Numbered from the stretch's first letter, positions 30,783 to 38,640 are shown. The stretch is 64,000 bases of DNA from an uncultured Collinsella sp. (GCA_900752015.1 CAADTZ010000019.1:8045-72044), one strand, 5' to 3'. Numbers and translations are program-made. The notes: generated by a model not told the origin, from the letters alone.

Positions 30783-30809
30783 GAGCGACGCCTCATATCA
30801 ATAATTCAT

Positions 30810-30935
30810 GCGAACGAAACTGGCCCAGGTGGGGTCATTTTCGTTCGCTGTGCTGATTTGCAAGCCGGCTTTCGCAAGGCGCGAACCTACGAAAATCGCC
30901 GCGCGGCAACGCGGAGCGATGAGCTCGGTCGGGGG
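30810..30935 (+). promoter_or_regulatory. Structured 5' leader upstream of the TetM-like GTPase (candidate attenuator)
   Basis: About 220-nt leader. Hairpin GCGAACGAAA-N18-TTTCGTTCGC (30810-30848). A second GCGAAC..ACGAAAA segment (30879-30895) could pair alternatively with the TTTCGTTCGC arm. Additional CGCG-rich stems follow. Confidence 0.3.
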
Positions 30936-31035
30936 ATAGGGCCCGCTTCGCCCGCCGGCTCGTAAATTGTATCATCCAGTGTGGAACGAGGACGCCCGTT
31001 GCCGCGTGCGATGGGCTTGTAATAAGAGGAGAGCC

Positions 31036-33039
31036 ATGTCGAAGCAGGCAGTCGTTGGAATCTTGGCGCATGTCGATGCCGGCAAGACCACGTTGGCCGA
31101 GGCCATGTTGTTCAACGCGGGTCGCATTCGCAAGCGCGGCCGCGTGGACGATGGCGATTCGCATCTGGACACTAACGCGATCGAGCGCGAGCGCGGCATT
31201 ACGATCTTCTCGTCTCAGGCCGTGCTCGACCACGGCGATACCCACGTCATGCTTGTGGATGCGCCCGGCCACGTCGATTTTTCGGCCGAGGCGGAGCGCA
31301 CGCTGCGCGCGCTCGACTATGCGATTTTGGTTGTGGGCGCCAACGACGGCGTGCAGGGGCACACCGAAACCCTGTGGCGCCTGCTTGCGCGCTATGACAT
31401 CCCGACGTTCATCTATATCAACAAAATCGATTTGGAGAATCCCGGCCGCGATGTTTTGCTGGCACAGCTCGGGCAGGGCCTTTCCGAAGGCTGCCTGGAT
31501 GCCAACGAACTGCTGGCGGGTGGCGCCGTTCAGGAGGACGCTGCTGCGTTGGACGAAGCGGCGCTCGAGGAGTTTCTCGAGACGGGTGAGCTTTCCGTCG
31601 CGACGCTGTCGCGCATGGTTGCCGAGCGCAAGCTCTTTCCCTGCTTTGCCGGCTCGGCGCTCAAGGACCAAGGCGTGGACGAGCTGTTGGATGGTATATG
31701 CGCGCTGATGCGCGAACAGGCATGGCGCCCGGAGTTTGCCGCGCGCGTCTACCGCGTGAGCCGCGGAAATCGCGGCGAGCGCTTGGCATGGGTTAAAGTG
31801 ACCGGCGGCACGCTGCATGCCAAGCAGATGATTGACGGACGTTCCGGTGCCGAGGCGTGGGAACAGAAGGTCGATCAGGTACGCATCTATAACGGCGAAA
31901 AGTATGAGCTTGCCCAAGAAGTTGCTGCTGGCGGTATTTGTGCCGTGACGGGTCTTGCGCACGTTCGCCCAGGGGACGCCCTGGGCGCGGAGCCTGCGGG
32001 CGATGCGCCCGTCATTGCGCCGGTCCTTACCTATACGGTGCTTCCGGGCGAACATGATGTCCATACGGTGTTCAAAGCATTGACTGAGCTGGCGGACGAA
32101 GATCCCATGCTCGGCGTAAGCTGGAATACGCATCTGGAGCAGATTCACCTGCAGTTGATGGGCGCCGTGCAACTCGAGATCGTGCAGCGGGTGTTGGCCG
32201 ATCGTTTTGGCCTTTCGGTTGCGTTTGAGTCTGGTGGCATTCTCTATAAGGAGACTATTTCGCAGCCGGTCGAGGGCGTGGGCCACTTTGAGCCACTGCG
32301 CCACTATGCCGAGGTGCATCTGCGCCTGGAGCCGTTGCCGGCGGGCTCGGGCGTACAGTTTGGCACCGTGACCTCGACCGACGAGCTCGATCTTAACTGG
32401 CAACGTCTGGCGCTCACCAACGCCATGGAGCGCGATCACCTGGGCGTGCTGACCGGCTCGCCCATCACCGATGTGCGCATTACGCTCACAGGCGGCCGCG
32501 CGCATGCCAAACACACCGAGGGCGGCGATTTTCGCCAGGCCACGTACCGCGCGATTCGCCAGGGGCTCATGCAGGCGCGTGAGGCCGGCGCGGCCGTGTT
32601 GCTGGAGCCGTGGTACCACTTTGAGCTCGAGGTGCCGGGGGAGTGCGTGGGTCGGGCGCTCTCGGATGCCACACGCATGGGTGCCGAGTACGAGCCACCG
32701 ACGATGACGGGTGACCGAGCGAAGCTTGTGGGTCGCGTGCCGGCATCCGAGGTGCAGGATTACGCGCTGGAGGTGGCTGCCTACACGAGTGGTCGTGGGC
32801 ATCTGTACCTGGAGTTCGCCGGCTATGCGGCTTGCCATGATGCCGAGCGCGTCATCGAGGCGGCCGCCTACGAGCCCGAGGCCGATCTGTCCAACACGCC
32901 CGACTCGGTCTTTTGCTCTCACGGCGCTGGCTACACCGTCAAGTGGTACGACGTACCCGCCACGGCGCACGTAAAGATTGATCCCGCCACCTTCCGCCCC
33001 TGGCGAGCAGCAGACGCCGAGTTTTTCGGCCACATGTGA
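31036..33039 (+). CDS. TetM/TetO-family ribosomal-protection-like translational GTPase (EF-G paralog)
   Basis: MSKQAVVGILAHVDAGKTTLAEAMLFNAGRIRKRGRVDDGDSHLDTNAIERERGITI...LVDAPGHVDF...YAILVVGANDGVQGHTETLWRLLARYDIPTFIYINKID. Collinear with the TetM G-domain motifs. 667 aa. RBS AGAGGAGAG lies before ATG 31036. The 825-aa antisense ORF is an artefact. Confidence 0.8.
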   Translation: MSKQAVVGILAHVDAGKTTLAEAMLFNAGRIRKRGRVDDGDSHLDTNAIERERGITIFSSQAVLDHGDTHVMLVDAPGHVDFSAEAERTLRALDYAILVVGANDGVQGHTETLWRLLARYDIPTFIYINKIDLENPGRDVLLAQLGQGLSEGCLDANELLAGGAVQEDAAALDEAALEEFLETGELSVATLSRMVAERKLFPCFAGSALKDQGVDELLDGICALMREQAWRPEFAARVYRVSRGNRGERLAWVKVTGGTLHAKQMIDGRSGAEAWEQKVDQVRIYNGEKYELAQEVAAGGICAVTGLAHVRPGDALGAEPAGDAPVIAPVLTYTVLPGEHDVHTVFKALTELADEDPMLGVSWNTHLEQIHLQLMGAVQLEIVQRVLADRFGLSVAFESGGILYKETISQPVEGVGHFEPLRHYAEVHLRLEPLPAGSGVQFGTVTSTDELDLNWQRLALTNAMERDHLGVLTGSPITDVRITLTGGRAHAKHTEGGDFRQATYRAIRQGLMQAREAGAAVLLEPWYHFELEVPGECVGRALSDATRMGAEYEPPTMTGDRAKLVGRVPASEVQDYALEVAAYTSGRGHLYLEFAGYAACHDAERVIEAAAYEPEADLSNTPDSVFCSHGAGYTVKWYDVPATAHVKIDPATFRPWRAADAEFFGHM

Positions 33040-37898: not shown

Positions 37899-38013
37899 AA
37901 GGCTCTCCTTTCACACCGCCGTTTAACTTCATTTTACTTTAGTTAATTCTGATTAAAAATGAGGGCTCTTTATCTAGGGCATCAATTAGGTGTGTGCCAT
38001 CGGCGTGGCGCTT

Positions 38014-38048
38014 GAATGTGACAAAGGGACAGTTCCTTTGTCACATTC
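38014..38048. repeat. AAAGGGACAG-core hairpin, copy H4 (GAATGTGACAAAGG-GACAGTT-CCTTTGTCACATTC)
   Basis: Perfect 14-bp stem, nearly identical to H2. Overlaps the stop codon of trmL on the minus strand. Confidence 0.65.
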
Positions 38049-38640
38049 CCGGAAAGCCTGTTTGGCGCAGGGCTTCGTAGAGGACGATGGCGGCGCTGTT
38101 GGAGAGGTTGAGTGCGCTGATGCGGTAGTCGTCCGGATTGATGAAGTTGCCGCAGATGTCCTGTTGAAGAATGGCCTCGTGGCTGTCCTCGGTATGCCCC
38201 AGCGATTCCTCGTGAGCTTCCCAAGCCTCGGCGTTATCAAGTGAGTCGCAATCGCGCAGCATCGGGATGCGCTCGCAGCGCTCGGACGCCGCGGCAAGCA
38301 GTGGCTCGGGAATGCCCGAGCTCTCGCTGCCAAAGACCAAGTAGTCTCCATCGCGGTAGGTACTCTGCGCATAGGTGCGGCGTGCCTTTTTGGTCAGCAG
38401 ATGCAGGCGCTCGTCGGCAGGGGAGAGGCCGTTGCGCGCAAGGAAATCCTCCCAGCCGGCATAGGTCGTCACGTCCAAGTTTTGCCAGTAGCCCAGGCCG
38501 GCGCGACGTACTGTCTTGTCATCGAGCGAAAACCCCAGCGGCTCCACCAGATGCAGGCGGGCGCCGGTGACCACGCAGGTGCGGCCGATATTGCCCGTAT
38601 TGGCCGGAATCTCGGGCGCATACAGCACAATGTTGAACAT
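38041..38640 (-). CDS. trmL: tRNA (cytidine/uridine34-2'-O)-methyltransferase TrmL (SpoU/TrmH family)
   Basis: MFNIVLYAPEIPANTGNIGRTCVVTGARLHLVEPLGFSLDDKTVRRAGLGYW...YLVFGSESSGIPE contains the SPOUT motifs. About 200 aa, with an extra segment before the C-terminal LYEALRQ. ATG at 38640. The longer ORF to 38853 is not supported. Confidence 0.7.
   Translation of the reverse strand: MFNIVLYAPEIPANTGNIGRTCVVTGARLHLVEPLGFSLDDKTVRRAGLGYWQNLDVTTYAGWEDFLARNGLSPADERLHLLTKKARRTYAQSTYRDGDYLVFGSESSGIPEPLLAAASERCERIPMLRDCDSLDNAEAWEAHEESLGHTEDSHEAILQQDICGNFINPDDYRISALNLSNSAAIVLYEALRQTGFPGM

Follow-up and report, generated by a model that had tools for sequence, protein, structure and literature searches.

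Gene content around a TetM-like GTPase, a class II UvrA and two ORC-like ATPases in Collinsella: a probable strain-variable patchwork

Class II UvrAs are defined by the absence of the UvrB-binding domain. Members of class IIa, such as Ecm16, give resistance to intercalators without the remainder of nucleotide excision repair (NER), and class II UvrAs are widespread among non-producers, where their roles are unclear (PMC9328131). In Tet(M), loop III (L505-V510, YYSPVS) displaces tetracycline, and is described as functionally the most important part of the protein (PMC4750697).

Relatives of both proteins are found at one locus of an uncultured Collinsella sp. (GCA_900752015.1 CAADTZ010000019.1:8045-72044), a Collinsella aerofaciens-type gut bacterium. 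The 64-kb stretch of DNA analysed is referred to here as the window. A first-pass annotation had drawn four ORFs at this locus, all of which an ORF check places where it had them, and its family assignments (a TetM-like GTPase, a class II UvrA and two ORC-like AAA+/winged-helix paralogues) are correct. The features are:

30864..30959, plus strand: 96-nt conserved element, GCCGGC...GCCGGC, about 75 nt 5' of the GTPase start
31036-33039, plus strand: GTPase gene, 667 aa
33033..33065, no strand assigned: hairpin 1, CATGTGACAAAGG-GACAGCT-CCTTTGTCACATG, overlapping the GTPase stop codon; -24.2 kcal/mol, z -6.6
33071..33098, plus strand: three 10-bp-phased direct repeats, GGTATAACTC GGTATAAGTT GGTATAAC, 35 nt 5' of ATP1
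33133-34251, plus strand: ATP1 gene, 372 aa
34244-36757, plus strand: class II UvrA (uvrA2) gene, 837 aa; true start possibly 34277
36759..36793, no strand assigned: hairpin 2, between uvrA2 and ATP2, left edge of the ATP2 cassette
36798-37898, minus strand: ATP2 gene, 366 aa, a diverged ATP1 paralogue; accessory
37899..38012, minus strand: AT-rich region 5' of ATP2, GC about 0.3, with 10-bp-phased AGTWAAA repeats and a TAAAAT -10-like hexamer
38014..38048, no strand assigned: hairpin 3, overlapping the stop of a TrmL/SpoU methylase gene (minus strand)

This four-gene grouping is probably (at a probability of about 0.6) a strain-variable patchwork at a recombination-prone spot, and not one conserved system. 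The uvrA2 and ATP2 genes are convergent, with hairpin 2 separating them, and the right flank is a conserved trmL(SpoU)-cobW-arsC-FMN reductase run. Neighbours in the window encode rRNA/tRNA methyltransferases, a GNAT protein, CobW, ArsC, FMN reductase and GGDEF proteins. The window has a GC content of 0.595. A comparison of composition, which the first-pass annotation had proposed, finds the GTPase and uvrA2 genes native by GC3, at background level, and the ATPase genes about 1 sd lower. For comparison with other Collinsella loci, numbered L below, it should be kept in mind that the genome-scan loci were retrieved with ATP1 as bait, and so do not show how frequent ATP1 is in the C. aerofaciens complex.

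The GTPase has the five-domain EF-G-like arrangement (I-V; Pfam GTP_EFTU, EF-G_D2, EFG_III, EFG_IV and EFG_C), with intact G1-G4 motifs (AHVDAGKTT, DAPGH, NKID) and a ribosome-binding site, AGGAG, 7 nt ahead of the ATG. Its best PDB matches are TetO (246 bits) and TetM (231 bits), both over the full length. It reaches no curated NCBIfam cut-off among tet_protect (420.6 bits against 775, about half), TetM/W/O/S (284.6 against 1100), EF-G (252.6 against 659) and EF-G2 (206 against 890), and the specific Tet models give 229-318 bits against cut-offs of 900-1425. In the HMMER alignment, domain IV loop III reads GGRAHAKHTEGG, as against GLYYSPVSTP in TetM/TetO. Membership of the TetM/TetO family, as first annotated, holds for the architecture but not for the tet_protect score, which is far under its cut-off, nor for the loop III motif, which is missing. 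Judged from its sequence, the protein is a translational GTPase of the EF-G/ribosomal-protection superfamily, with TetM/TetO-like architecture and a non-TetM domain IV tip. Since the TetM loop III is replaced, it would most likely act at the ribosomal A-site region for a purpose other than TetM-type tetracycline displacement. Several Coriobacteriaceae genera have chromosomal orthologues with 66-68% identity, and a C-terminal NYN_YacP nuclease domain is found in some relatives.

A long structured leader had also been annotated for this gene. The leader folded alone is no better than shuffles (z -1.09), and the structure that stands, the 96-nt element, comes from comparative data only. Rfam returned nothing relevant for the leader at E up to 10 (30750-31080). 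A TPP riboswitch (46039-46149) is the only match to reach gathering level in Rfam anywhere in the window. The 96-nt element has been retained in three Collinsella lineages, in 23 distinct versions altogether, and moves together with the GTPase into other contexts (L095, L223). It is predicted to form a four-helix junction with the invariant loop CAAGGCGCGAACCT. Separate MFE folds of the versions agree in topology, pairing covers 94.8% of cells (38-46% in slid controls), and both-sided changes are seen in five pairs, which was equalled in 4 of 500 shuffles. This element and the 10-bp-phased repeats described below are side observations of more value than the original claim of a module.

ABC_tran matches UvrA2 in three stretches, and the NCBIfam UvrA models score it at 730 and 711 bits. 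Its two Walker A motifs (GVSGSGKSS, GVSGSGKTT) are intact, and both signature motifs are present. In the NCBIfam alignment, residues 152-837 correspond to model positions 253-937; therefore the region of the UvrB-binding insert, about 134 model positions, is missing. Class I UvrA structures align in two pieces, with chain residues of about 120-270 left unmatched. The annotation of a UvrA paralogue without the UvrB-binding insert, and thus of class II, is borne out by this alignment and by the one-piece match to 2vf7. Its choice of PF17755 as the UvrB-binding marker, expected to be missing, was mistaken: this Pfam family stands for the DNA-binding domain of UvrA, which the protein does have (E 6e-13). 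By homology, UvrA2 would be a dimeric, ATP-dependent binder of distorted DNA that is unable to pass lesions to UvrB. There is no class I UvrA within the 64-kb window; the 945-aa ORF at 10375-13212 is a hybrid histidine kinase. The annotated overlap of the ATP1 stop with the uvrA2 start is literally present (8 nt), and looks like part of a degenerate half-hairpin scar. The true start may be M12 (34277), because the homologues in L010 and L224 begin at AIEVRG.

ATP1 and ATP2 share 31% identity over their full length (E 1e-47), and the same AAA+ plus winged-helix (ORC/Cdc6-like) fold, as expected from their annotation as paralogues. AAA_16 is found in both (E 4e-13 for ATP1), and ATP2 has an HTH_24/MarR_2 match in Pfam. 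ATP1 carries Walker A (GNRGCGKT) and Walker B (FAIDEA) motifs and a C-terminal winged helix. With its AF2 model (pLDDT 87.8), the best folds found by Foldseek are PABY2304 (2qen, TM 0.65/0.69), SSO1545 (2fna), Aeropyrum ORC2 and Sulfolobus Cdc6/Orc1, and eukaryotic ORC is also matched. To our knowledge, the two closest structures, 2qen and 2fna, are themselves of unknown function. The family is very large (3549 representative clusters). In C. intestinalis, Slackia and Atopobium, the homologues of ATP1 (54-76% identical) occur singly and unlinked, in unrelated and ordinary chromosomal surroundings.

The repeat array 5' of ATP1 is unique within the window (two overlapping matches against 0.06 expected), is kept in L095 and L224, and is presumed to be a promoter/operator array. 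Arrays phased at 10 bp, differing in sequence, lie 5' of six of the six Coriobacteriia ATPase homologues examined; self-similarity is best at a lag of 10 bp in each of these upstream regions (p from 0.04 to 0.0008). The repeats upstream of plasmid homologues are less clear (lags of 9, 9 and 7). The unusually AT-rich stretch that had been annotated 5' of ATP2 is real: its GC content is 0.29-0.32 over 37910-37993, and that of the window as a whole is 0.595. In other strains it runs on into the junction with a serine-recombinase element: homology stops at 37962 or 37986, which is the start of that element in L012, L021 and L039.

The annotated set of three hairpins, with 1 and 3 nearly identical, is confirmed. 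AAAGGGACAG occurs in five copies in the window against 0.1 expected, three of them at 33041, 36768 and 38023, and the hairpins have perfect stems of 13-15 bp (-23 to -27 kcal/mol, z -5.8 to -8). As rho-independent terminators they were rejected: the stems are strong but the tails (GCUAUUGG, UGAUGCCU, CCGGAAAG) have no U tract, and a terminator scan caught none of the three. They were also rejected as integron attC sites, there being no tyrosine IntI and no R'/R'' motifs.

Gene order is identical in close relatives. A synteny check, suggested with the original claim, finds that the four-gene block is not conserved across Collinsella. ATP2 is missing in at least 17 of 88 loci, among them L011 and L086 (ATCC 25986), where CCGAA and a single hairpin come after the stop of uvrA2; hairpin 3 is the only one remaining where ATP2 is absent. 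A gene for a RimJ/RimL-type GNAT (Acetyltransf_3), in the same transcriptional direction, is inserted in about 11 of 88, bracketed by hairpins, and can separate ATP1 from uvrA2. Insertions of 3-4.5 kb are found in about 12 of 88, and a 4-kb element with a small serine recombinase, flanked by hairpin copies and lying on either side of ATP2, in 14 of 88. The resolved indels run from hairpin to hairpin, and the 4-kb element uses the same sites. Chimeric arms are seen at the hairpin 2 position in L012 and L023, both of which also have the 3' end of uvrA2 duplicated over 182 bp at the distal border of the insert, and one hairpin is itself present or absent as an indel between strains. Other gene orders or contents occur in L095, L096, L223, L224 and L225. 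The order uvrA2-GTPase-ATP1 is also found; in L095 the GTPase-ATP1 pair is intact though on the other side of uvrA2. ATP1 is absent from L223 and L225, L223 has the GTPase without uvrA2, L094 has uvrA2 without the GTPase, and a recombination breakpoint lies within the GTPase gene of L224.

Thus, the locus would be a recombination-prone stretch of the C. aerofaciens-complex chromosome in which unrelated genes have been brought side by side without forming one system. The two residents would be the GTPase, with its own structured element, and the class II UvrA, with ATP1 and ATP2 as accessory genes from the actinobacterial family of stand-alone ORC/Cdc6-fold AAA+ winged-helix proteins. Each ATPase would most likely bind its own repeat array cooperatively and in an ATP-dependent manner, and the outcome may be autoregulation or the maintenance of a mobile-element remnant. 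Transcription of ATP1 may run on into uvrA2 here, a link that does not hold in other strains. The AAAGGGACAG palindromes may be REP-like elements closing off genes with no U tract, and the points at which cassettes (ATP2, the GNAT gene, the 4-kb serine-recombinase element) are gained and lost.

What may remain of the original idea of an island is the recurrence of GTPase and uvrA2 as neighbours, seen in five Collinsella arrangement types (including those of the window, L224, L225, L095 and the GNAT-containing type-strain arrangement). In L225, 83 nt separate the two, no terminator-like hairpin lies in between and there is no ATPase, an arrangement compatible with a real functional pairing. They could form a xenobiotic or antibiotic tolerance cluster, in which the GTPase shields ribosomes, UvrA2 removes DNA-binding drugs and the inserted GNAT acetyltransferase adds a third activity in some strains, the genes being kept side by side because gut Collinsella encounter these compounds jointly. 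The resistance given by Ecm16-like proteins, the TetO and TetM structures as best solved relatives of the GTPase, and a MATE efflux gene adjoining the 79%-identical UvrA2 of L094 all fit this explanation, which we nevertheless regard as unlikely. All of the adjacent cases share one chromosomal locus, and the adjacency is therefore explained by common descent; inheritance is enough. Either gene occurs without the other (L223, L094), and the GTPase is solitary in other genera, being found without its partners in Enorma and one further taxon. The block has native composition and contains no biosynthetic cluster or efflux gene, and class II UvrAs are common outside producers. The more specific claim, of a self-resistance island with dedicated regulators, is not supported by the ATPases, which are unlinked elsewhere, and the GTPase (420.6/775, no TetM loop III) speaks against both this claim and the tolerance cluster. 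Three findings had been named as speaking against the module: a canonical UvrA, a GTPase that is a housekeeping EF-G paralogue with unrelated synteny, and ATPases that are common unlinked singletons. One of these was found outright and one in part, and the canonical UvrA is contradicted because the UvrB-binding insert is missing.

The ATPases raise two further explanations. Stand-alone genes for full-length homologues are carried by 115 actinobacterial plasmids, in the vicinity of ParA/ParB, integrase and toxin-antitoxin genes, and ATP1 and ATP2 could be remnants of integrated plasmids or integrative elements, each ATPase with its repeats being an initiator/iteron or partition-like maintenance unit that adjoins uvrA2 merely through the integration site of such elements. 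The predicted ORC/Cdc6-like fold, the iteron-like arrays 5' of every Coriobacteriia member examined, the GC3 below that of the neighbours, a weak match in PHROG to a phage family whose function is not known, and the behaviour of ATP2 as an indel whose AT-rich upstream region abuts the serine-recombinase element elsewhere point in this direction. However, the C. intestinalis homologues keep the same chromosomal position among housekeeping genes in three assemblies, no replication, partition or transfer genes lie beside ATP1 or ATP2 here, the arrays of the plasmid homologues are the less clear ones, and the repeats overlap the likely promoter, so that plain autoregulation fits equally; such an origin seems distinctly improbable. 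A DNA/RNA surveillance or anti-phage module, with the two ATPases as sensors and UvrA2 or the GTPase as executor, is very improbable indeed. AAA_16/STAND-like and UvrA-like ABC ATPases are known in defence systems, the locus is variable like defence islands, and the C-terminal half of UvrA2 matches the MADS component mad3 in PADLOC (E 3e-67), as well as other ABC-type defence ATPase models. The mad3 match is generic UvrA homology, and no further MADS gene is present. No PADLOC model matches the GTPase, and there are only marginal P-loop matches for the ATPases (E 2.5e-4 or weaker, above 1e-4), which carry no effector domain. The surveillance role with ATPase sensors, as originally proposed, is also opposed by the absence of ATP1 and ATP2 from relatives: both are dispensable in sister genomes retaining uvrA2 and/or the GTPase. 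The claimed linkage of ATPase, uvrA2 and GTPase does not extend to other genera, where the ATPases are singletons, are common on plasmids, and the GTPase stands alone (Enorma).

With the patchwork as the preferred reading, each component can be compared with its closest described system. UvrA2 shares two ABC modules and a DNA-binding domain with the class II (IIa) UvrAs 2vf7, Ecm16 and DrrC. It aligns end to end in one piece with D. radiodurans UvrA2 (2vf7; 17-837 against 16-837), with 477 bits to this protein, 406 to Ecm16 (7sh1), and 597 to the class I Geobacillus UvrA over the shared parts. Unlike the self-resistance determinants DrrC and Ecm16, it lies outside any intercalator biosynthetic cluster, and its host is a gut commensal. 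The GTPase aligns with TetO/TetM in one piece over the full length, with a score slightly above that to EF-G, and differs from Tet(M), Tet(O) and EF-G in having about 65 additional C-terminal residues.

The ATPases have the AAA+ core, lid and C-terminal winged helix, in about 370 aa, of archaeal Orc1/Cdc6 and the PF01637 family. Foldseek probability to Orc1/Cdc6 and 2qen/2fna is 1.0 (TM 0.52-0.69), with only 12-16% identity to the archaeal Orc1/Cdc6 and PF01637 structures; AAA_16 is the best Pfam model, and ATPase_2 is under its cut-off. Repeated DNA elements adjoin the gene in both cases. However, unlike those of the Orc1/Cdc6 initiators, the ATPase genes are not at a replication origin, and their repeats are short (units of 7-10 bp at 10-bp phase) and overlap the promoter of their own gene. 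The hairpins are near-perfect palindromes of about 33 bp with a short asymmetric centre, recalling both REP palindromes and hix/gix-like sites of serine recombinases. They are REP-like in being multi-copy, intergenic and at gene ends, and may themselves be indels; unlike in REP systems, no RAYT transposase was seen. They resemble hix/gix-like sites in that, while no serine recombinase is encoded in this window, they stand in some strains at the borders of inserts encoding one of about 200 aa.

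Four ORFs were recovered by ORF calling at exactly the coordinates proposed in the first-pass annotation, whose observation of a four-gene block is confirmed and whose gene annotations are essentially right. The window has a G+C content of 59.5%, protein homologues of its genes carry the names Collinsella aerofaciens or Collinsella sp., and many human-gut metagenome contigs carry the same block with a protein-identical UvrA2.

Genes and hairpins of the block (window coordinates)
31036-33039, plus strand: TetM/TetO-like GTPase, with all five EF-G-type domains (Pfam)
33133-34251, plus strand: ATPase ATP1, AAA_16 match
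34244-36757, plus strand: UvrA-like protein (UvrA2), aligned to the UvrA model without positions roughly 119-252
36798-37898, minus strand: ATPase ATP2, AAA_16 and HTH_24 matches
33033-33065, 36759-36793, 38014-38048: hairpins 1, 2 and 3

ATP1 and ATP2 are 31% identical over their full length. As a sequence search of the PDB with the ATPase profile gave only P-loop-level matches, a fold search was needed; with the AlphaFold model of ATP1 (pLDDT 87.8), the best matches are the Pyrococcus Walker-type ATPase PABY2304, Sulfolobus SSO1545 and archaeal Orc/Cdc6 proteins. Thus, "ORC-like AAA+ with a winged helix" is a fair name for the fold. UvrA2 aligns with Deinococcus UvrA2 in one piece and with class I UvrAs in two, and with part of the UvrA model missing the class II assignment holds; the protein matches class II(a) UvrA as published (PMC9328131). 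PF17755, which had been taken for the UvrB-binding domain, is actually the UvrA DNA-binding domain and is present in UvrA2 (Pfam). The C-terminal ABC module of UvrA2 (C-terminal half of 34244-36757) also matches PADLOC mad3 of the MADS defence system (E 3e-67), which shows mad3 to be a half-UvrA; no other MADS components are found near UvrA2. All three hairpins are real, very stable and without U tracts, and upstream of ATP2 the sequence is strongly AT-rich, as had been claimed. A sigma-70 consensus scan of 30700-38300 found zero promoters, this consensus being uninformative for an actinobacterium.

Outside the C. aerofaciens complex, synteny of the homologues shows that the block is not a conserved unit. 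ATP1 has lone homologues with unrelated neighbours in an Atopobium sp. MAG (76% identity), Slackia (60%) and C. intestinalis (54%). A 79% identical UvrA2 homologue is isolated, with a MATE pump on one side and a glycosylase on the other, and the GTPase is found alone in Enorma and one other taxon. Within Collinsella, the right flank is constant (trmL/SpoU, cobW, arsC, FMN reductase) and the left-hand content varies.

Gene orders at homologous loci (L numbers are handles for loci in other genomes and metagenomes)
Window type: GTPase-ATP1-UvrA2-ATP2
ATP2-less type: otherwise window order, at least 17 loci, the type strain among them
GNAT type: GNAT between ATP1 and UvrA2, about 11 loci, plus L224
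L095: UvrA2-GTPase-ATP1
L225: GTPase-UvrA2, no ATPase
L223: GTPase only
L096: GTPase::NYN fusion, with a different right flank

Given this varying content, ATP1 and ATP2 are accessory genes. The GTPase and UvrA2 have GC3 values of 0.749 and 0.742, equal to the window background of 0.730 ± 0.072, and both ATPases lie about 1 standard deviation below it. The genome-collection scan with the ATPase alignment retrieved C. aerofaciens-complex species only (96-98% identity), and is informative for indel polymorphism, not for distant synteny; distant contexts come from exact-protein look-ups. L224 has a recombination breakpoint within the GTPase gene, around 32141: its left flank and the 5' 1.1 kb of the gene are foreign, with ≤69% identity to the window, and over the 3' part of the gene and on into the right flank identity is 91-95%. 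Upstream of the block are two large genes for hybrid sensor histidine kinase/response regulators (7591-9783, plus strand; 10375-13212, minus strand), and the GGDEF/EAL proteins downstream vary by strain, being full-length in L001 and truncated in L002-L006.

With the ATPases accessory and the genes separable across loci, a dedicated four-gene system, whether for self-resistance and xenobiotic tolerance or for DNA/RNA surveillance with ATPase sensors, is not supported. A narrower alternative is that the GTPase and UvrA2 are paired for drug tolerance. They are the sole recurring pair in the block; however, the pair is always at one chromosomal locus, so shared descent explains the recurrence, and such a pairing appears unlikely. 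As to the GTPase itself, its nearest solved relatives are TetO (246 bits) and TetM (231 bits), over the full length, with EF-G only slightly behind (218 bits). It scores 420.6 bits on the NCBIfam ribosomal-protection model, for which the cut-off is 775 bits, and lies far under all specific Tet, EF-G and EF-G2 cut-offs. In a residue-level alignment it has GGRAHAKHTEGG opposite GLYYSPVSTP of Tet(M)/Tet(O) in domain IV loop III, functionally the most important part of Tet(M) for displacing tetracycline (PMC4750697). Orthologues in Enorma and Thermophilibacter are 66-68% identical, and the public names of orthologues disagree ("TetM/TetW/TetO/TetS family", "elongation factor G", "GTP-binding protein"); some TetM-like GTPases of the same clade are labelled "tetracycline resistance ribosomal protection protein". 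We conclude that the GTPase belongs to a distinct, chromosomally inherited clade of putative ribosome-associated GTPases. Antibiotic resistance is possible, yet not indicated. Because the clade fails the curated threshold, is without the drug-displacing loop and is sometimes labelled as tetracycline resistance, its members may be over-called in gut-metagenome resistome surveys. Some close relatives, at 82-87% identity, carry a C-terminal NYN_YacP (PF05991) fusion (L096 8001-10640, 879 aa; also proteins P0249-P0252, P0270, P0277 and P0280). NYN_YacP is the family of the ribosome-dependent RNase Rae1, and the fusions hint that the clade works in ribosome quality control.

In the picture that we prefer, with a probability of about 60%, two genes of known superfamilies are resident, two self-targeting ORC-fold ATPases are accessory, and gene gain and loss at this locus are structured by a palindrome family. 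Each gene of the block belongs to a known family, and that they lie together is an accident of one lineage at a variable locus; as a resistance island or surveillance module, the block is of little importance. Three side observations provide testable handles: an ORC-fold ATPase family, huge in Actinomycetota, for which a candidate DNA target is obvious, a conserved structured element before a ribosome GTPase, and a palindrome family marking cassette borders in an abundant human gut genus.

The ATPase family comprises 3549 clusters at 50% identity, uniformly about 365-390 aa. All Coriobacteriia members examined have 10-bp-phased direct repeats less than 100 nt upstream of the start, which is a new observation.

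Phased repeats upstream of ATPase genes
ATP1: GGTATAA x3, window 33071-33098; the same in L095 (13046-13075) and L224
Atopobium sp. MAG locus L090: AGTAYAA x3, just upstream of position 8001
Slackia L089: RGTATAR x3, just upstream of position 8001
C. intestinalis L091: RGTGTAR x8, just upstream of position 8001
ATP2: AGTWAAA repeats, window 37925-37955

The best lag is 10 in six of six upstream regions (each p 0.04-0.0008 against random segments), and the GGTATAA array occurs once in the window. The repeats differ in sequence among homologues, as iterons do. In the simplest mechanism, the winged-helix ATPase would bind the repeats of its own promoter cooperatively, along one helix face. Alternatively, ATPase and repeats could have an initiator/iteron or partition-like role in mobile elements; full-length homologues occur on 115 actinobacterial plasmids, in every case as a solitary "ATP-binding protein". 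Identity of the ATPase with RepA of the Bifidobacterium megaplasmid pMP7017, which recognises eight direct repeats within the repA promoter, was considered and rejected: RepA is a RepA_C-domain protein at 96-97 kb, and the ATPase homologue is a separate gene at 174-175 kb. Conceivably, ORC-fold ATPase and 10-bp-phased array together form an uncharacterised DNA-binding unit, very widespread among actinobacteria, in which ATPase specificity would co-evolve with its own iterons.

A long structured leader had been described for the GTPase gene. Folded as a single sequence, its 5' region is not better than shuffles, and the leader has zero matches in Rfam. A 96-nt element within it is nearly invariant in the C. 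aerofaciens complex, with the upstream flank in two unrelated versions.

Locations of the 96-nt element
Window: 30864-30959
L095: 10739-10833
L223: 6841-6935

The element moves with the GTPase gene, following uvrA2 in L095 and adjoining mscL in L223, and independent folds of the three lineages give the same four-helix junction. Helix 2 has compensatory changes, with three base-paired versions (UUUCG/CGAAA, UCCUGC/GCAGGA, UCCCGC/GCGGGA). Pairing holds in 94.8% of alignment cells, compared with 38-46% in slid-partner controls, and five pairs have changes on both sides, giving moderate comparative support, from three lineages only, for a predicted structure. Either strand may be the transcribed one: read on the opposite strand, a frequent C·A mismatch becomes a G·U pair. 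The element is not present upstream of the GTPase in L224, L225, Enorma or L098. The invariant loop DGCAAGGCGCGAACCT was matched at 120 loci when metagenomes were scanned for it as a pattern, but by blastn no match extends past the 15-mer, and these are therefore chance matches; the element is so far known in Collinsella only. Its loop GCAAGGCGCGAACCU presumably bears a loose likeness to 16S rRNA around 1093-1108. As a possible new cis-regulator, this junction RNA would control a ribosome-associated GTPase.

Indels at the locus extend from hairpin to hairpin. In ATP2-less loci, CCGAA and a single hairpin 3 come after the uvrA2 stop, and this empty site defines a cassette. Two family members also bracket the GNAT, of the RimJ/RimL type (Acetyltransf_3; L010 11171-11728, L224 10276-10815), which lies between ATP1 and uvrA2 with a palindrome on each side in about 11 species representatives, ATCC 25986 included. 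The sequence after the ATP1 stop in the window, GTGATAAAGGTGACGG, looks like a half-hairpin scar, which would explain the apparent overlap of the ATP1 stop with the uvrA2 start. In 14/88 Collinsella loci, a ~4-kb element of 47-52% G+C, not present in the window, is found on either side of ATP2, edged by AAAGGGACAG palindrome copies and coding for a 200-218-aa serine recombinase, a lipoprotein-like protein, a membrane protein and a 465-aa protein.

Cassette and serine-recombinase element
Window, about 36758-38012: ATP2 cassette (hairpin 2, ATP2 and AT-rich upstream region)
L012 10917-14737, L035 10151-13954, L023 13878-17677: ~4-kb element, also in L021, L039 and L058

The hairpin adjoining uvrA2 in L012 and L023 is chimeric, with one arm per type. 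In both loci the uvrA2 3' end (window 36575-36756) is also present again, as a diverged copy of 182 bp on the far side of the insert, beginning at the same base (L012 14881-15062, L023 17823-18003), which is a putative att-like duplication. The uvrA2 3' end as a fixed att site is only partly supported, the duplicate being confined to these two and found in none of the other insert-bearing loci checked.

We read the hairpins as probable members of a REP-like palindrome family; genes end at them, and insertions and deletions occur there by preference. A 33-bp member shows a clean presence/absence difference between the window (28226-28250) and L096 (5113-5145) after the rRNA methyltransferase gene, so a palindrome can act as an indel unit in its own right. 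Another member (46170-46205) lies in a divergent promoter region, not at a gene end, adjoining a TPP riboswitch (Rfam, 55.9 bits; 46039-46149, minus strand) upstream of thiamine genes. The exact motif is found neither in 0.7 Mb of unrelated metagenome DNA nor in most non-aerofaciens loci. Uniform orientation, as in the window's five hairpins, is not a rule, as reversed centres occur in other strains.

As double-stranded DNA, the hairpins are shaped like small serine-recombinase sites, with two 13-bp inverted half-sites and a short asymmetric centre, and we only infer a link between the two. The AAAGGGACAG palindromes may be such sites, at which single-gene cassettes are shuffled at the 3' ends of Collinsella genes; the cassettes would be ATP2, GNAT and the ~4-kb element. 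It is doubtful that palindrome recombination sites, an ATPase/repeat DNA-binding unit and a 96-nt RNA cis-regulator will all prove correct together. If the first is true, palindromes and serine recombinase would make up a cassette system that resembles integrons but uses a recombinase of another class.
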